Assembly (NCBI GenBank): GCA_000002445.1
Contig: CP000068.1
Location: forward strand, 736,001-800,000
Length of the DNA: 64,000 nucleotides
From: Trypanosoma brucei
Taxonomy: Eukaryota
Direction: 5' to 3'
Each line of letters begins with the position of its first letter. Position 1 is the first letter of the stretch. Shown in pieces: positions 13,008 to 53,013 of the stretch. Under the pieces are notes generated by a model. It searched no databases and was not told the origin of the DNA. It saw nothing but the letters and a program-made list of their open reading frames with translations. The position numbers were made by a program, and so were the translations under genes.

Positions 13008-15269
13008 ATGGAGAGAAATACTCCTCGTTACCAGCATCCTCCTTACCGAGGGAGGGCTAGTGTACACTACGGGCAAACGCGACCAACACAGCGGGCACCG
13101 CCGCCACCCGCAAGGGGCAATGAACCAACCAACCTGGGAGCTGCGGCGGAGTGTTACGGAGTGATGACGCGATACGGTGCTGTACAACACGGAACCCACG
13201 CCTCAGGCGGCCCATCACAACTCGGACAGCAGCTGCGAAGGGAGGGTAACTCCATGCGCTTTAATGACATCGGTGCGAGATTCACCAGAAGTGGGTCAAA
13301 CGGCGGTTCTTACGGCGGAGGGTCCGGATATGGCTCTTCTGTGTCGCATAATCCCCCAAGTTTACGTAGGCAAAGCAGTGGGCTTCTATCACGCGACAAC
13401 TCACTTTGTGGTCACCTATCCGCTGAAGATGTTGGGTATGGTACTCTTTATCGTCCCAGAAGCTTCTCAAGGGGTTCGCGGTACGGTATGCGCTCATCGT
13501 CCCAACAAGGAAGCCTTCGTTCTCACAGTGGCGCCGGTGGAGGAGGAAGTTTTGTCAAGAGAAGTAGCTTTCGAAGTAGCCCGAGTCGCTACCCTTGTGG
13601 TTCGTTTCACTGGACTCCTGATGGTCCCGCGTCAGCATCGAACAGTGGTGGTAGTTTTTACGGTACGCGTCGCAGGACCTCTGGCGCAGGCGTTTCCAGT
13701 GTCCCTAACCCTGCCCGTTGCGTATACGATATGGGGGGAGCAGTCAGTCGCCGTGGCTCCTTATTGGCCGGTCAGAGTGGCACAACGCCGAGAGAAGGAG
13801 CCTGTTATGGAATCAATCGGAAGAACAGTATGCGGTTATCGCGTACTAATTCTTGTATGAACGGCTTCTACAGTTATGGCGCCAACGCGTTGGCCTCAAG
13901 ACGGGAAATGGGTGGGTATGGCAGCCTTCCTCGGAGCCGCCTGGCGGGGAGGCCTACAGCTCCACCTAATTGGCCAGGTGTCCCAACAAACGTTTCACGC
14001 AACCTGAACCCAATGGGTACAAGACAACCGCAACGTCCGTTAAATGAACCCATCGTACCAGACGATGCTGAAAAGGATGTTCCTGGTCAACTGGTACGGT
14101 GTAACAGTGAAAAGAAAATCGGTATCTATTTCAAGGACGTACAACCGACGGAGGAGGGGGAGTACAAACAAGGCGACGCGGCGAGTGGACGGAAGTCAAA
14201 GGCCTCCATGTCGTCGTCTGCCGTAACGAATATTCGCACCATTGTACTTCTTGAAGGGGAAGCTGAGGATTCAATTCATGTTGATGGGACGACCATGACG
14301 TTACTTAAGCCGAACAGTGATGAACCGGTAAGGTTTGAAACCAAGGAAATTGTTTATTACGACCCAAACGATTCTAACATCTACATGGACTCTACAGAAG
14401 AGCTCTGTGACACATTCCTCTTGGGTTGTAATATCAGCCTCGTGATGGCCGACGCTCAGTGCCCTGCACAGCAACCTACGCAATGGCATTCATGGAATGT
14501 TCTCAGGCGGTTGATGAGAGATGTATTTGCGCGAATGCCCGACCGCGCGGAGTTGAGGTTATCAATTTCATTGATGGACGATGATAAAGTGATGGATTTA
14601 CTAGTGCCCGATCCGCAGTTTGTTAACCTCACCGTCTCCTACTCTCCGTTGTTCGGAAACGTACCCCATGGAATGACATTTGAGGTACTGGACAGTGCGT
14701 CGGAGTTTGGAGGCCTCTTAAAAGTGGCACTCTCAAGGGCTGTTGGTCAAGACAGTGGCGAGTTTGGAATAATTCTTGTGGTGGCAATATTAAAACAAGT
14801 TCGTAAAAACCCCTCAAATCCCAAAGATGAAGAAGATGTTATCCTATCCTCTTTGTTTGCTACGGGGGTGGGTGACGGTGTCGTCCACTACAGTCGTATC
14901 CTTGACAAAAACCCTGCCGAACCACGTGCCATGTTCCAGTTTGCTGTGGGTGGTCCATCCCAAACGGCTGCTGTCGTCTCCATGGCGGACGATCCCAAAA
15001 ACTTAGTGAAAAATCACCAGTTCATGACTACTCTTCAACGACTTGGGAAAATTGAAAATTACACTCTGCGTTTAGGTTCGGTTCGTCGGTTTGTTTCCTA
15101 CACGAAGGAGTCGCTGCCGAAGACGCGGATCCACCTCCAGAACCTGCCGGAAGGACCGGAGAAAGAGGCTCTTAAGCGGTCAGTGACGCGGTACGAGAAG
15201 ATGTTGGCTGACGCTGAGGCCATGCTTGAGTCACCGGACTGCGCAGCTCCGAAGACATATGTGCGTTAA
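13008..15269 (+). CDS. Hypothetical protein with an N-terminal Gly/Ser/Arg-rich low-complexity region (RG/RS/YGG-type) and a C-terminal globular domain.
   Basis: ATG ORF of 753 aa. The N-terminal ~300 aa are rich in GGSYGGGSGYG, RSxS and RGSRYG repeats. Confidence 0.55.
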   Translation: MERNTPRYQHPPYRGRASVHYGQTRPTQRAPPPPARGNEPTNLGAAAECYGVMTRYGAVQHGTHASGGPSQLGQQLRREGNSMRFNDIGARFTRSGSNGGSYGGGSGYGSSVSHNPPSLRRQSSGLLSRDNSLCGHLSAEDVGYGTLYRPRSFSRGSRYGMRSSSQQGSLRSHSGAGGGGSFVKRSSFRSSPSRYPCGSFHWTPDGPASASNSGGSFYGTRRRTSGAGVSSVPNPARCVYDMGGAVSRRGSLLAGQSGTTPREGACYGINRKNSMRLSRTNSCMNGFYSYGANALASRREMGGYGSLPRSRLAGRPTAPPNWPGVPTNVSRNLNPMGTRQPQRPLNEPIVPDDAEKDVPGQLVRCNSEKKIGIYFKDVQPTEEGEYKQGDAASGRKSKASMSSSAVTNIRTIVLLEGEAEDSIHVDGTTMTLLKPNSDEPVRFETKEIVYYDPNDSNIYMDSTEELCDTFLLGCNISLVMADAQCPAQQPTQWHSWNVLRRLMRDVFARMPDRAELRLSISLMDDDKVMDLLVPDPQFVNLTVSYSPLFGNVPHGMTFEVLDSASEFGGLLKVALSRAVGQDSGEFGIILVVAILKQVRKNPSNPKDEEDVILSSLFATGVGDGVVHYSRILDKNPAEPRAMFQFAVGGPSQTAAVVSMADDPKNLVKNHQFMTTLQRLGKIENYTLRLGSVRRFVSYTKESLPKTRIHLQNLPEGPEKEALKRSVTRYEKMLADAEAMLESPDCAAPKTYVR

Positions 15270-43967: not shown

Positions 43968-46900
43968 ATGGCTGTCATCCCTAAGGTGGGTGAGGTGTTC
44001 CGCGGTGAGGACGGAGTTATTTCTGTGGTACTTCCCGATACTTGTGATCCGGATCATGAACCCACAGAGGAGGAACTGCATGAATATGCGGAGTTTATTG
44101 GAATAGATGTTAAAGAAGAGAAACATCTTTTGTGGATTGCACGCGAGGGGCTGCAGACCCCGCTTCCTGAGGAGTGGAAGGCGTGTCGTACTGGTGACGA
44201 AGAACCGTATTATTTTAACTTTCGCACTGGTGAAAGTAGCTGGGACCATCCTCTCGACGATATGTTCAGGCAGAAGGTCGATTTAGAGAGGACGAAAGCC
44301 AATGCTTCTGCATTAATTAGTGGCAGTAAGCATGGTAGTACAAATATGAAGATACGCTCCGCGTCGTTATCGTATTCCTCAGCGTCGTCATCCGCTTCTT
44401 CCGACGATGCAGACTCTAGTGCAGAAACCGCTGCTAACCTTCGTCGACAAGGGCATGTGTCCCGACTCGAAAAGGGATCTGGTGGTAATGCCCATTCCAT
44501 TAATCATGTCAGTGCTATGACGGCAAGACCGGTCCCTCTAACCTCTACTGTTGACGCATCGAGTCACTCCTTTAGCACTCAGGGGTCAAGGGATGGCGCA
44601 CTGGTGGGTGAAGCTGCCGGAAAATTAGGTGCCTTGCGGACTCCTGCTCCTGTTCAGCGTGCAAAACTGGATATGTCTAGTTTGTTAGAACCTGGAAAGG
44701 GCGGTCTTCCGTCCACAGCCATTGGTGGTGGAAGTGGTAGAGGCAACAGCGGGAAAGGTAACTTTGCAATAGGATCAAAGGGAAAGTGTCCTGAAGGTGT
44801 TCGAGACATGGAAGCGTCAATCCGGCAACGTGTAGATGAAGAAAACGACGCACGGCGTCGTACAATGAGAATACAGCAGGAGCGGCAACTTGCCGAAGAA
44901 AGACTTAGGTTGGAAGCCGAAATTCGGATGGTTAGTGCCGAATGTGAGAAGGAATTAAACGCGGAACTACAGCAAGCCAACGAATCTGAGGAGCAATTGC
45001 AACTTGAGAAAAGTAAAATGGATGCAGTCTTGTCGGCAAAACAGCGCGAGTATGATGAGGCACGCAAGCAGGTAACGGCACTGGGTTTACTACTACAGCG
45101 GGAAGAGGCAAAGCTGGAGGGTGAAATGCAGAGACGCATAGCGGAGGCGAAGGAGAGAATAAGTGGCAGCGGTGACGATAAGTGTAAGAAAGCGAAGGAG
45201 GCCGCTGCTGCCAAACTTGAAAAAGAGAAAGAAGAACGGAGGAAAGCGCATACCAAACGGTTAGAGGAAGAGAGCAAACAGCTGGCAGCTAACACTCAGT
45301 CAACCGTGGGATCTCTGAAAAAGGCCCTTGAGGAGAAACGTTTGTCAGCTGAAAAACAACTTAAGGCTAAGCTCTCAGAGTTTTCTCCAGCACCCCCCGT
45401 TAGCACTGCAGGCGAAAGTCATCCTGATATTAAGGAGGCCCAGTCTTCGTTAGAACTTGCGGTGAAGCGAGCAACTGCTGAAGCTGCGGCAACTACGTCA
45501 GCTTTACGTCACCGATATGAAAACGAATTGGAGGAGCTTAAATCAGAAAAGAAACGAGCTCTAAGCACTGTGAAAGGTAAGGTGACATCCAAAAATGAAC
45601 CTGTCGAAGACACAATGCAGAACTCTACGCCTCACCCTTCCTTGGAAGAGGAGGAGAAAAGGTTGAAGGAGGCACTAGAAGAAAAGGCTGCACGTTATGT
45701 TGATGAAACACAGCGGCTTTTATCATTTATGCGGAGCGAGTTGAATGGGACGAATTCAACGTCGTTAAATACAACCGAGGGGGACAATATAACTCTTTCG
45801 TCAGGTGCTGAGCTCGCAGAAGAGCAACCAAACTACGATCGCACATGGAAGCAGCTAGACGAGCAGCATGCGAGAACGATGGATCGCATTCGTAGCGCTC
45901 ATGAGCAGACCTTGAGAGAAAAGCATCTATTCGATCCCAGAAAGTCATTGGATTTCGCTGAAAAATTGAAGGTACTGCAGAGGAAGTGGTTGGCAGCCCA
46001 CCCAAAACCAAAATTTTCCGTAGGGGACTCTTGGTCTGCGCGTGAAGGGACCGATACATATGAGTCAAATAGTCCTCAGGTGGATACAAAGTTACTGCAG
46101 GAAAGAGTTGATGCTGCTGTTAAAGCTGCGACGGAAGAGGCCCGGTGTAAACACGGAAATCAACTACAGGCAGTTCAAGAGCTACTGGAAAAAGAAAATC
46201 GCAAGGTTAGTGAAGCGCACCGCGCTGAGAAGATTAAAGAAATGAAGGCTCTGGTTAATCAATACCTCGAGGTATGTTTGGCCGAGCGTTCGAAAGAGAT
46301 AGATTTTTCGACAGCTTCGGTTGGTGACCCCTACAAGAGTAATACGACGAGGACGGGTAATGAATGTCACCTGCAAACGTCACCACAGTTACCTGAAGGC
46401 ATGGTGTCATTAGAGGAAGCCCAAAGACGTGAGGAAGAGGTGCATCGTCAGCTTCAAGACCGTGTAAAAGCGTTGCAAGATGCCACGAAGCTTTCTCAGA
46501 CGGAGCTTCGCCGGCAGCAGGGACTGTTGCACACGAAATCCCTGTACAGTTGCCAGCGTCCACCAATCGTACCGATGCCAGCATCTCCATCCGTCGCGAA
46601 CGACGCTTTTCACACACCCCGGTTTCCTCTTAATCAGAAGCAACCCCAGTCAGCCTTCACAACCCCGATGCTAAACAACACATTGTCCACCATACCTTCA
46701 ATGTATACGACAAACGGTAGCGAGAAGCCGAATGCAACACCGTACTCGTTCTTGCTTGATATTTGTGGTGGACGGCAGCAGAAACCAGTATTGAAGAGCC
46801 AGGGTGGCAATTTAGATGGCGAACATATTTTGCGTAATACTGTGGAGTTCGCTTGTTCATCTGAGCAGACAGGTCACGATTTGGAACAGCGCTTTCAGCA

Positions 46901-47501
46901 CGCCAGATTGCTGCTACTAAAGAAAAAGGATGAACTGTTGGCAAGGCGAGCTTGCATGGAACGTTCCCGTACGTTGTGGTTGCGTGACATGGAAAAATGC
47001 ACTACAACGGGGGAGAGGAGTCATGCGCGTTTGCTCCGTCAAATAAAGGTTTCACTGGAGGAGCAAGCTCGGAAATTAAACCAAGAAGTTTTGGAGGTCC
47101 GTCTGGCGTTCGCCTCGCTTCGCGATTCTGAGCGAAAGTTTCGCAGTGCTGCCGGTCGCGAGGAGGCAACAAATGGAAGGGAAACCGCTATTATGCCCAA
47201 TTCATTAGGTGGTAACAACATGTCTGTTAATTCTACCACAGCTCCACTGTCAAAGAGCTCACAGCATATGATTGAGTTATTAGACGGTATTTTAACTAAA
47301 GCGGCTAAGTTGGAAAGTCATGTGTCCCCATTGCCCGACAAGTACAAATTGATGGGTAGCAAAAGTGTTGAGGGGAAACAACATCACTCACATGCGAGAC
47401 GCTCCCACTCAACGACTCGTCACGTGAGCCGAGCGGCTTCTGCCGAGGGAAAATCTGGTGGTGTTGCACGGTGGCTTGATGAACAGCAACTTGCCTCATG
47501 A
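43968..47501 (+). CDS. WW-domain protein with a ~900-aa coiled-coil region; CEP164-like architecture.
   Basis: N-terminal WW domain 'LPEEWKACRTGDEEPYYFNFRTGESSWDHPLD'. It is followed by long E/K/R/A/Q-rich heptad-like sequence, for example 'RRTMRIQQERQLAEERLRLEAEIRMVSAECEKELNAELQQA'. Confidence 0.55.
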   Translation: MAVIPKVGEVFRGEDGVISVVLPDTCDPDHEPTEEELHEYAEFIGIDVKEEKHLLWIAREGLQTPLPEEWKACRTGDEEPYYFNFRTGESSWDHPLDDMFRQKVDLERTKANASALISGSKHGSTNMKIRSASLSYSSASSSASSDDADSSAETAANLRRQGHVSRLEKGSGGNAHSINHVSAMTARPVPLTSTVDASSHSFSTQGSRDGALVGEAAGKLGALRTPAPVQRAKLDMSSLLEPGKGGLPSTAIGGGSGRGNSGKGNFAIGSKGKCPEGVRDMEASIRQRVDEENDARRRTMRIQQERQLAEERLRLEAEIRMVSAECEKELNAELQQANESEEQLQLEKSKMDAVLSAKQREYDEARKQVTALGLLLQREEAKLEGEMQRRIAEAKERISGSGDDKCKKAKEAAAAKLEKEKEERRKAHTKRLEEESKQLAANTQSTVGSLKKALEEKRLSAEKQLKAKLSEFSPAPPVSTAGESHPDIKEAQSSLELAVKRATAEAAATTSALRHRYENELEELKSEKKRALSTVKGKVTSKNEPVEDTMQNSTPHPSLEEEEKRLKEALEEKAARYVDETQRLLSFMRSELNGTNSTSLNTTEGDNITLSSGAELAEEQPNYDRTWKQLDEQHARTMDRIRSAHEQTLREKHLFDPRKSLDFAEKLKVLQRKWLAAHPKPKFSVGDSWSAREGTDTYESNSPQVDTKLLQERVDAAVKAATEEARCKHGNQLQAVQELLEKENRKVSEAHRAEKIKEMKALVNQYLEVCLAERSKEIDFSTASVGDPYKSNTTRTGNECHLQTSPQLPEGMVSLEEAQRREEEVHRQLQDRVKALQDATKLSQTELRRQQGLLHTKSLYSCQRPPIVPMPASPSVANDAFHTPRFPLNQKQPQSAFTTPMLNNTLSTIPSMYTTNGSEKPNATPYSFLLDICGGRQQKPVLKSQGGNLDGEHILRNTVEFACSSEQTGHDLEQRFQHARLLLLKKKDELLARRACMERSRTLWLRDMEKCTTTGERSHARLLRQIKVSLEEQARKLNQEVLEVRLAFASLRDSERKFRSAAGREEATNGRETAIMPNSLGGNNMSVNSTTAPLSKSSQHMIELLDGILTKAAKLESHVSPLPDKYKLMGSKSVEGKQHHSHARRSHSTTRHVSRAASAEGKSGGVARWLDEQQLAS

Positions 47502-49901
47502 TATTTTACAACGTGGGTAGAATTTCATTATAGGCGTTTGCAAGCATGCGGAAAACAATGAATAGATATGCGGTGAACTTATGTGCGTGAGTTTCGTAAC
47601 GTGTTTCCTTGCAATTGAGTGTTTTTTTTTGTTGCTTCCTTTGTTTACTGGCTTACAGGACTACTAATGTGCGGAAAATTGTCCATTCTGTGAAGAACTT
47701 CACCGCGTGCACGATAGTCACTCCATTTATATAACTTTAGTTCTTTGAGTTTTGCCGGCACCTCCATGTTTTCCCTGACCTGACCTGATCTGATCTGATT
47801 TGTTTGTTTGACCTTCTTATTGATTCTTTTCGTGTGATTTGCACTTCATCACAACTGAGGAGCAGGTGACATTGATAACTTTGTTGGAGTTATGACGATG
47901 TTCTAATAACCTCTACTTTGAAATATGTCCTTGTTCCTTCTTTCTCCAAACACTCACGCAAACACAAACGATTCGAGTTTACGTCGTTTGCTGTTTCTGT
48001 TTCTGCTTTTGTTTTGCTTTTTTTTTTTTCAAACATCGTAACGTCATGAATGCCGAGGAAACCTTGTGTGGGATGTGTGAGAAATATTTGTATGGAAAAC
48101 GCTTCCGCTCACTTGGGATGGAGCAGCGGGTCAAATGCGCAAAAGCTCCCGGGAGGAACTGGTGAGTGCTAAATTGTTTTCTTTCTCTCTTTCTCTCTCA
48201 CTCTATATATATATATATGTGTGTGTGTGTGTTCGTTTATATTTATGCTTGTATGCTTAGTTATATTTGCGTGTACGCCTATTTGGGTGTGCTTTTGAGT
48301 CGTGGTTTCTCAAGTTAGAGAGAGGATGTTGCTGTTTCGTATTTGTTTGTTTGATGGCTTTGAGTTTTTTTTTAAAAAATAAAAAAAGAGGGGGAGGAAG
48401 CCATGGGAATTGCACCTTAAAAGTAGGTACAGCTTCACTTCGCTGTTAACATCTATTGATTCGGTTGTTTTATTTTTGTAGGAGCCTTGTTAGTCATTTC
48501 TCGCACTATTATTATTGTTATCACTCTTATTATTATTATTCACCTTTTCCCTTCCCTCACGGTTTAGTGACGACATGTTTCTAATTCCCTGTGGGTAGGA
48601 TGCTGTAGGAAATACACTTCACCCAAATCAAGACAGAAAGGGAAGTATAGACTGCTGTAAATTTGTGTTACTATATGGTTAAACATAAATAATTTCAAGA
48701 TAAAACACGAAATGTTGCCTTTTCATGGTTTTATTTTAAGAAAGAACTTGTTTTTTTTCCTTTCTTTCATTTCACTTTTCTGTCGGAAGAGGCAATTAGC
48801 TAGGTAGGTTCATATGTCACCTTTTCGTTTGTATTAACATCAAAAATGCAAGCACCCTTTCACATTGACGTTCACACTCCATCATCATTTAAAAGGGGAA
48901 AAAAAGAATTTAGAGGTAGCGGAGCGCTATGGGTCACTTTTCAGTGCTGGAATGGAGGTTTGTAGACGTGATCACACGAAGATCCCACAATTTGAAATAT
49001 TTGGTGCGGTAGATGGGAAGTAATAAAGGCTCTGATAAGTTATTGTTGAACCAAACGCTAACGGAACGTTTTAGAAGTTTATAATCACAATGATTGTGGC
49101 GGTAGGACGAAGGAAAAAAATTTAAAAAAATAAATAAAGAGTCTCAATGCCAGATGACTGTGACAAGCACATGAATTAGTTAAATATTGTAGTTTTCACA
49201 TTAAGGTTCTTTCAGTTGGTACTACGCACGCAAACTCTTGGCAGAGTTGGTAGAGACGTACTTGTTCTTTTCTTCTTTTCTGTATATTCGTTAATTACAC
49301 CTCTTTCTTGTGCCTCATTAGCTGTCACGTTCCCTTCATTTTTGTTTTTATGTGATTTCGGTTTATTAGGTGGAATCTTAACCTAGCTGTGGGGATGGGA
49401 ATAGTTCTTGAAGTCAATTATTATTTAAAGGCTTTCAAAGGGTTATAGAGGTGAGTTTTTTTTTTCCCCGGCTGTCTGCAATACCTTCGGTAAAGCACAA
49501 CCGTCTTCATGGTATTTTTATTGTGACTATCGGAGACACGCTGTATCTGATGTTTGTTTGTTACTGGTATCGCTCATATATCATTGAAATGATCCGAGCA
49601 CGACCGATGATTCTCGCATAATGGTTTAGCTATTATTCTTTGTTGAAGTTACCTGCATCTTTCGTCACTGTCAATTTTTTTCTTTGTTTTGTTTTGAAAA
49701 CAAACATTTAGAAGGGAAGTGATTTACTGCTGGAATCCCTTCGTGGTGTTGAAGAAACTAGTGGGGAAGTAAGTCTGTGCGGCGGCGTTAAGTGGTTTAC
49801 CAATTAAGAGAAAGGGAAAGGAAAGGGATAAGAGGGAAAGTGTGTGGTGAAGAGTAAGGAGGAACAGTTACCACCGCAAAGGCGACTTAACCCGATATTG
49901 A

Positions 49902-52900
49902 ATGGGCGTGCCAAAGTTCGCCTCTTGGTTGCGTAATAAATATCCTGCAATTGTAACTAAGAACTGCCCCTCGTCTGTCCACGGACTGTACATTGACCTT
50001 AACGGCATTATTCATCCATGCTGCCATAATGATTCGGACACCGCAATTGCACTCCTTCCGGAAGAGGAAAAACTGGAATGTATTTGCAGTGAGTTGGAGC
50101 TGCTTGTACAAACTGTGCAGCCGAAGGAGGTAATGTACATCGCCATCGATGGTGTTGCGCCACGGGCGAAGATGAACCAGCAACGTGCCCGCCGTTATAT
50201 GGGCCGCGCAGCACCCGCTCAAACTGGGGAAGTTGCCTCCACTCACATGCCAAATAAAAGTGGGATGGCCATTGTAGAGGAGGTGGTGCGTGAGTTTACG
50301 TCAACAGAGATGGCGCAAGCCAATGATGACCTCGATGAAGTACGGCAAACGCTATTAGAGGATCCACTCTATAGTGGTGCGTTGCATAATGAAGGGGAAG
50401 AAAGAGGCTGGGGATGCCTTGAACGACGGGGACGGGGTTAATTCTTTCTGTGTAAGGAGCACAGATGATGATTATGAGAGTACGCACGAAAATCGTTACG
50501 TGGAATCAAACCAGGTGGCTGACGATGTGTTCGGTCACCGTGGCGAAGTTATTGTCGATGACCCTACCGCTTTCGAATTTGATAGCAACTGCATCAGCCC
50601 AGGTACCGACTTCATGGCAAAAGTGTCTGACGCTGTGCTTAACATGCTGAATGAGAAAATGTCTGGGAATGACCCCACCTGGACACGGTTGTGCGTGATA
50701 TTTTCTGGGTCAAATACACCAGGGGAGGGGGAACATAAAATCATCGATTTTTTGCGCACGCAGTCTTCACTGGCACAGTTTGGCGGCAAGGCCAATCACG
50801 TAATTGTTGGATTAGATGCGGATTTGATTTTCTTGGCGCTATCTTTGCACATCACGCAGGTGTTTATTCTACGTGATACGACAAGAAATCCCTATAAGAG
50901 GCGAGCTGTTGCTCGACAGCAGCAGCGGGAGAGGCGGTCACGTAGGAAACGTAACTTTATCGACGACACATGCATCATTTCGTTGAATCCCAGTTATATT
51001 GATGAGGAGGAGAGCGACGGCGTAATTGGAGTACCCGTGTGTGAAAGCAGCGAAAACTCAAGTAGCGACACCGATAATGAATCCCCCATTGAGAGCAGAG
51101 AAGCCCACGTCGCAACAGTACCTAACACTGGATTCGAGTATTTTGATATCAGCGTGGTGGGTGGGTCCCTCATCTCAGAGGTGAGTGCTTTGTGTGATAT
51201 TAAGAAGTTTACTCCCGCGACGGAGTCGGCATTCGACAAGAAAACGCTCGTTTCCTCGGCAGGTTATTATTTCTTTGGTCAACCGAACCATATCGAGGGT
51301 GGCACCTTGCCGTCTTCTACAGAATGTGGATCACCGAAAGGACGACGTTCTAAAAGGGTTTCAAAGAAAACTGAGGCAGAAAGAAGTTGGAAGAATTTTA
51401 GGCCGTGCTCGTCGCCGGCGAACAGCAAAATTATTGACGATATCATTGTACTTTCGATATTGCTTGGTAACGACTTCCTTCCGCACGCGCCAAGCGCGTT
51501 TTCAGGAGAAAGTGCCCTCGACAACTTACTGGAGTTATACGTTTCTGAAGTGCTACCATACGGTTTCTTAACGAAAGGGCCTCATGAAATCAACCTACCA
51601 CAACTTCAACGTCTGTTTGAAGCATATGCAAAGATTGAGGCAGTTAAGTTCCGGCGGTTTCTCTTATTCAAAAGCACAAATGAAGAAAACAACAACAGCG
51701 GCGCCGAATTTAGAAAAGGAAGCAACAATGACAACGTAACCGTTGCTGATGTAGCAGTTGCTCTTCACTCAACCATAGATGATAGGTGGCGCGACACGTA
51801 CTTGAAGTCAACAGGCCTCTCTAACAGCGTGCAAGAGGCGTGCGAAAAGTATGTTGAAGGAGTTTGTTTTGTGTGGCGTTACTACACAACAACCACTACC
51901 GACTCCGATTGGTCGTGGTATTATCCTTTTTACCATGCTCCACCAGTAATAGACCTTGCAATGTACTTAAAGGAAGCCAACATCAAAAGGATGCCGCTTC
52001 CTGTGGTGAAGCCCACACCACCGGACACATTAGTGCAATTGCTTTCTATTTTACCGCCTACAAGTCATGCGCTTTTACCCATGGTGCTGGGGGAGGTGAT
52101 GGTTCGCTCACCGCAACAGGCGGAGCTCGAGAGTACATTTCCCTTGCAGTGGCATGTGGATTACCACGATAGCAACGTAGTACATCTTGCCACCGTAATG
52201 CTGCCGTTCGCTGATATGGATGTGCTTCAGCAAGTCGTTGACGCTGCTTGGCCACAACTCACGGAGGAGGAAAGATGGCGAACGCAAAAGTTGGACTTCC
52301 ACCTTGTAATTACCTCAAACAAGACATCTTTCGTGCCGAAGGGAGATTTGAGGAAGTTGTCCGACGCACTCGATACCATATTGAGACGAGTTCCTTCCCG
52401 CGAAGGGGTGGAGATACGACAGCTCTATGATGTTCCTTTGGAGCGATATCGGCCGCGAACGTATTCGTGTACGGTGGAAGTCCCAAGGCTTTCATATGGT
52501 GCGGATGGTCAAGTGATCAAGCGGCAACGTCGCCATCGCCACTCAGGCCAACTAAAAGGGAATGGAGAAGGTGTGATTGAAGGGAAGAAGTCAAATTCTC
52601 GCGTTACTGTTGTGAACAAAGGTCCATGTTTTGCCACGTTTTTGCTGTTCCTTGCATGTGCCTCTGTTTTCACTGCCGTTGTATTGTTGCCATGCTCTTT
52701 AGCGTCCTTTATGCAAGTATTGTCGATAAATATTTGTGCTATATTGATTAGCTTTGTGCTTGGCATCTCCGTCCATGACCCCTCCAGTGGCTGTGGCATG
52801 AGCCGCAATAACATTCGGCAAACATTCGTTGATTGGCTATGCACGGAGTGCCTGAGCCTTAACTTTTCATCGAGAACAAGGTGTTTCGTTTGTCGCGCGC

Positions 52901-53013
52901 CATTTGATAACCGACGCTGCCTCGCTGTATTTAGTTGTACGCAATCCGCCGATCAGTCATTGTACGATCCCGACCACTCGCCGCACATCGAGGCGGTGAA
53001 GTTACAAATTTGA
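49902..53013 (+). CDS. XRN-family 5'-3' exoribonuclease. The reading frame is interrupted by an apparent single-base frameshift between 50359 and 50441. The C-terminus carries a RanBP2-type zinc finger.
   Basis: Frame A (49902-50441) has 'MGVPKFASWLRNKYP', 'LYIDLNGIIHPCCH' and 'MYIAIDGVAPRAKMNQQRARRY'. Frame B (open from 50359 to 53013) has 'FDSNCISPGTDFM', 'CVIFSGSNTPGEGEHKIIDFLR' and 'VIVGLDADLIFLALSLH'. The C-terminal 'WLCTECLSLNFSSRTRCFVCRAP' fits W-x-C-x2-C-x3-N-x6-C-x2-C. Confidence 0.8.

Follow-up and report, generated by a model that had tools for sequence, protein, structure and literature searches.

The gene for the 5′-3′ exoribonuclease XRNB (Tb927.5.2450) is split between two reading frames in the reference genome of T. 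brucei brucei TREU927. In its minimal description, the lesion consists of one extra A within the AAA at 50401-50403 and a G>A substitution at 50399, as aligned with the allele of T. equiperdum OVI. Positions are those of the window, the 64,000-nucleotide stretch of chromosome 5 analyzed here, which has a GC content of 43.8% and carries all its large ORFs on the plus strand. We give slightly better than even chances to a genuine, very recent null mutation, strain- or allele-specific, in a dispensable paralogue. The split gene comprises the following features.

49902-50441, plus strand: XRNB N-terminal ORF in frame 0, 179 aa from its ATG (ORF list, XRN_N match and residue conservation).
50359-53013, plus strand: remainder of XRNB as an open stretch in frame +1, with the second half of XRN_N, the XRN_M helical domain and the C-terminal region.
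50399-50403, plus strand: lesion, GAA GAA AGA G in the window and GAG GAA GAG in all intact alleles (DNA alignment).
50439-50441, plus strand: premature TAA stop in frame 0 after the frameshift (ORF reading).

The earlier note had read this locus as an XRN gene divided between frame 0, ending at 50441, and frame +1, starting at 50359, and both the ORFs and the Pfam matches agree with it. A TAG at 50356-50358 closes frame +1, which then runs open from 50359 to the stop at 53013 without any further stop or frameshift, giving 879 aa from a GTG at 50374; it also contains an ATG at 50389. The first piece matches XRN_N profile positions 1-147 (E 3e-35), and the second matches positions 136-240 (E 5.8e-35) and, further on, XRN_M and a RanBP-type zinc ribbon. 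Because the two pieces match complementary halves of the XRN_N profile, they represent a single XRN catalytic domain split over two frames and not a chance pattern. In the repaired protein, XRN_N (PF03159) is continuous over positions 1-240 (E 4e-71); XRN_M (PF17846) is matched with E about 5e-33. Along with these two domains, the protein has the acidic metal-binding residues and the basic 5′-phosphate pocket of the XRN family.

Six XRN paralogues, XRNA to XRNF, are now recognized in T. brucei (PMC10351884), and the expectation that the split gene is one of them can be narrowed to XRNB. The best homologues of the joined protein bear the names XRNB or exoribonuclease B; they come from T. cruzi, T. 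grayi, T. rangeli and Leishmania. The published RNAi primers for Tb927.5.2450 (PMC10351884) match the window exactly at 52278-52297 and 52827-52846. The flanking genes, which encode a WW-domain protein and a 492-aa protein, are common to DAL972, OVI and IVM-t1. The gene thus belongs to the kinetoplastid XRNB orthogroup by best reciprocal similarity to annotated XRNB, by shared neighbors and by its match to published reagents. XRNB has been reported as cytosolic and non-essential, and the absence of a phenotype on RNAi has been published. Elsewhere in the window, the 753-aa ATG ORF at 13008-15269 is the only one of 10 neighboring ORFs without an exact translation in the protein collection, whereas the other nine match TREU927 proteins exactly; its annotated start probably differs from the first ATG.

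Comparison with intact alleles locates the lesion to a few bases. Intact alleles read CAT AAT GAA GGG GAG GAA GAG GCT, and the window reads CAT AAT GAA GGG GAA GAA AGA GGC. Across 50390-50410, the sequence would read GAGGAAGAG or GAAGAAGAG without the extra A, compared with GAAGAAAGAGG with it. The extra base introduces a +1 frameshift at codon 167, and a stop follows 13 codons on. Codons 1-166 of the 179-aa ORF are thus authentic XRNB, while its last 13 (RGWGCLERRGRG followed by the stop) form an out-of-frame tail. Deletion of any one A of 50401-50403 yields a 1036-aa protein that is 100% identical to OVI XRNB, whereas deletion of a base elsewhere in the overlap leaves 1-14 mismatches. After repair, the G>A at 50399 is a synonymous GAG>GAA change, and the protein reads EGEEEAGDAL across the lesion site, where the junction is spanned by EGEEEAGDALNDGDGVNSFCVR. 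A single base is therefore sufficient to restore the ORF, as had been predicted, although the restored protein has 1036 aa instead of about 1055 aa.

The earlier note had suspected an indel in one of three GGGG runs. The overlap contains four such runs (50394, 50410, 50428 and 50434), all of which are the same as in the intact alleles, so a G-run indel is ruled out; the extra base is an A in a run of three. A plain AA>AAA insertion is likewise ruled out by the pairwise alignment with OVI, which shows the accompanying G>A at 50399.

The lesion site at codon 167 falls in a lineage-specific, hypervariable and indel-rich loop of ~120 residues between the conserved XRN_N halves, as placed by comparison with the solved Xrn1 and Rat1 structures and nine other kinetoplastid XRNBs. 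The break had been assigned to the conserved N-terminal region; it does lie within XRN_N, but in this loop, and no conserved motif is hit. Ten kinetoplastid XRNBs share without exception the residues D32, D83, E275, E277, D305, D307, K90, Q94, R97 and R98, which line up with the Xrn1 motifs. The frame 0 piece holds D32 and D83 together with the 5′-phosphate pocket (K90, Q94, R97 and R98), and the frame +1 piece holds E275, E277, D305 and D307. Each frame thus holds only part of the catalytic residues, and both products would be incapable of nuclease activity. If the lesion is real, the extra A, next to a synonymous G>A, would cause a +1 shift at codon 167, with translation ending 13 codons after it. 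The resulting 179-aa product would keep half of the metal-binding acidic residues (D32 and D83), with E275, E277, D305 and D307 lying downstream in the other frame. As judged from its sequence, the allele as written could not make an active nuclease.

We considered whether the split might be functional, through programmed recoding (+1 ribosomal frameshifting, transcript slippage or editing) or as two cooperating polypeptides, and find this highly improbable. Its sole support is that both pieces are otherwise undamaged and that frame +1 contains the ATG at 50389. The extra base occurs in no orthologue or sister strain, where the ORF is uninterrupted throughout, and a conserved recoding site is therefore lacking; GAA GAA AGA is not a known +1 shift motif. 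Programmed +1 frameshifting is ruled out on these grounds, and a run of three As is too short for transcription to slip efficiently. To our knowledge, U-insertion/deletion editing in trypanosomes is confined to mitochondria, which rules out RNA editing of this type. A two-polypeptide enzyme is ruled out because its active site would be divided between the polypeptides. Cis-splicing, already regarded as very unlikely in the earlier note, is not needed, since a one-base deletion restores identity to the orthologues.

The earlier note had also proposed a comparison with related strains, and every other Trypanozoon assembly within reach has a continuous ORF. An intact XRNB ORF of 1036 codons is present in at least eight of them: DAL972, OVI, IVM-t1 and five Logan read-set assemblies. 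The joined protein matches three 1036-aa proteins at about 100% identity, namely SCU70328.1 (OVI), RHW72543.1 (T. b. equiperdum IVM-t1) and CBH11210.1 (DAL972), and RHW72543.1 is also the protein found in the five Logan assemblies. In the DNA alignment with the OVI allele, all 27 SNP states are common to both and the lesion is the sole difference, as all other 3110 positions of the window gene are identical. Between the two Trypanozoon haplotype groups, XRNB shows 11 nonsynonymous changes over 2405 sites and 13 synonymous changes over 703 sites (dN/dS about 0.25), which indicates purifying selection, and orthologues reach out to Bodo saltans. The gene thus has the disrupted frame of a decaying pseudogene but neither added lesions nor relaxed constraint, with no further lesion relative to OVI over 3.1 kb. 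Because the rest of the gene is undamaged and under purifying selection, the lesion is either extremely recent or not real.

Several observations concern the surroundings and the collections searched. TREU927 and OVI differ by about 0.07% over 14.8 kb. Over this distance, the XRNB insertion is the only coding indel and the only one outside a long repeat; the other length differences fall in intergenic poly-A, poly-T or poly-G runs or GT/AT microsatellites (57240, 58326, 58420, 58507 and 48219-48374). The upstream WW-domain gene of 1177 aa is one ORF in TREU927, DAL972 and OVI. In the region of IVM-t1 (CM010676.1) syntenic to 43968-47501, it is annotated as three fragments of 135, 181 and 329 aa, probably owing to an assembly indel error; this case shows that such apparent frameshifts are common in this group. 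The top XRNB matches include orthologues from T. vivax, T. grayi, T. cruzi, T. rangeli and T. conorhini (47-50% identity) but none from T. congolense, in whose assembly XRNB may have been lost, broken into fragments or left unannotated. The collections apparently lack TREU927-derived assemblies, as no TREU927-exact protein has a Logan source. The exact 179-aa product has no record elsewhere in the protein collection, and a protein search with this product found no T. brucei fragments; in a collection of this makeup, both results say nothing on TREU927 itself.

In the reference annotation, the upstream WW-domain gene is AAZ11359 / XP_844918 / Q582C1 and the downstream 492-aa gene is AAZ11360 / XP_844919 / Q582C0. 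The GenBank and UniProt accessions of these two genes are consecutive; therefore, the reference contains no XRNB protein. The BAC-level accessions AAX80448 to AAX80451 likewise leave no slot for XRNB, and the XRNB protein cluster has no TREU927 member. We infer that the public record never carried an XRNB translation, i.e., that the gene was treated as a pseudogene. The lesion is evidently already reflected in the reference annotation and is not a new find. The searchable literature that names Tb927.5.2450 makes no mention of the frameshift, and neither XRNB nor Tb927.5.2450 is mentioned in two TriTryp pseudogene surveys in the parts of their text and supplements that are accessible.

The two options offered in the earlier note, a sequence error or a genuine inactivating lesion, are the two that remain. 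The extra A and the neighboring G>A might represent a base-calling, finishing or BAC-clone error, in which case the parasite has an intact XRNB gene of 1036 codons encoding the OVI-identical protein. This explanation is a strong contender, to which we assign somewhat less than an even chance. It would account for the recovery of a protein 100% identical to OVI XRNB on removal of one A, for the lack of any further difference from the OVI allele in 3.1 kb, for catalytic residues that are all intact in a gene under purifying selection, and for the intact gene in all other assemblies. There is also a precedent in the TREU927 assembly: Cosentino et al., 2021 (PMC8445201), who describe long-read assemblies of Lister 427, mention one TREU927 gene that was split in error, Tb927.2.5860/5870. 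The nature of the lesion itself can be read in both directions. The insertion and the substitution are clustered within 3 nt in a purine-rich context, GGGGAGGAAGAGG, a pattern that fits faulty base calling better than a pair of mutations arising independently. However, the reference is finished Sanger BAC sequence, and a run of only three As is not an error-prone homopolymer. Moreover, no XRNB protein has been present since the first, BAC-level submission (AAX80448-AAX80451), suggesting that the annotators accepted the frameshift.

On balance, we infer that the lesion is present in the parasite and not merely in the reference sequence. XRNB is dispensable in culture, and in T. brucei Lister 427, premature stops confined to one allele are known to persist and do not trigger nonsense-mediated decay (PMC8445201). 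By a rough estimate, at a TREU927-OVI divergence of about 0.07%, a real non-repeat indel in 3.1 kb is at least as likely as a finishing error. Against a genuine lesion, the window gene is otherwise identical to the intact OVI allele, just as a reference error would look, and XRNB is under purifying selection within Trypanozoon (dN/dS about 0.25) and conserved as far as Bodo saltans.

A genuine lesion would not by itself make the strain XRNB-deficient. Since T. brucei is diploid and each BAC clone derives from a single haplotype, the sequenced haplotype may be null while the other chromosome 5 homologue is intact. Lister 427 provides documented examples of frameshifts and premature stops in one allele only (PMC8445201), and purifying selection on XRNB favors a sheltered recessive null over a fixed one. 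The window carries no information on the second allele, and we regard heterozygosity of this kind as rather unlikely when taken as a claim of its own, but as a substantial part of the case for a genuine lesion. It is unlikely that TREU927, a fly-transmissible reference strain, is a natural homozygous XRNB null. If it were, this kinetoplastid-wide and apparently membrane-anchored XRN would be dispensable through the whole life cycle, and a ready-made knockout background would be available for the study of XRNB.

In practice, TREU927-based protein databases lack XRNB, whereas every sister genome has it intact. With a genuine lesion, an XRNB null allele is present in the T. brucei reference strain that is used most widely, in agreement with the published lack of an RNAi phenotype; XRNB will then never turn up in work on TREU927-derived lines, such as genome-wide tagging or proteomics with searches of the TREU927 proteome. 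With a sequence error, a real and conserved exoribonuclease is missing from the reference proteome, and deletion of one A at 50401-50403 would correct the entry. Either way, the split XRNB is a known gene and no new kind of feature; it is ordinary whether as a knockout or as a reference error and matters little beyond housekeeping.

The frame +1 piece also encodes two features near the C-terminus.

52621-52782, plus strand: hydrophobic stretch, residues 907-960 of the repaired protein (mean hydropathy on the Kyte-Doolittle scale up to 2.5 for 19 residues; alignment).
52831-52902, plus strand: RanBP2-type zinc ribbon with W978, C980, C983 ... C994, C997 (PF00641, 24.5 bits, just below the 27-bit cut-off).

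The hydrophobic stretch of ~54 residues comprises two transmembrane-like segments whose position is conserved across kinetoplastid XRNB from Bodo saltans to Leishmania. The cysteines of the zinc ribbon are invariant over the same range in the alignment. The region 52621-52902 (residues 907-1000 of repaired XRNB), in which a hydrophobic stretch precedes a zinc ribbon, is unexpected in an exoribonuclease that has been described as cytosolic; on sequence grounds, this arrangement suggests that XRNB may be a membrane-anchored XRN.

XRNB shares XRN_N and XRN_M, the acidic active-site residues and the 5′-phosphate pocket (KMNQQRARR) with Xrn1 and Xrn2/Rat1 (e.g. PDB 3pie, 2y35 and 3fqd). In contrast to Xrn1 and Rat1, XRNB has the ~120-residue loop between the XRN_N halves, where the lesion lies, and a kinetoplastid-specific C-terminus with the two hydrophobic segments and the RanBP2-type zinc ribbon, while the C-terminal domains of Xrn1 are missing from it. 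The Trypanozoon orthologues CBH11210.1, SCU70328.1 and RHW72543.1 occupy the same locus with the same neighbors and are 99-100% identical to the window XRNB in sequence; compared with these proteins of 1036 aa each, the window copy is cut to 179 aa by the extra A with the G>A at 50399. The cases in PMC8445201 resemble XRNB in that a conserved core gene is broken by a small indel while sister assemblies are intact, and both artefactual and genuine allele-specific examples are documented there. That study differs in its focus on Lister 427, and XRNB is not discussed in it.
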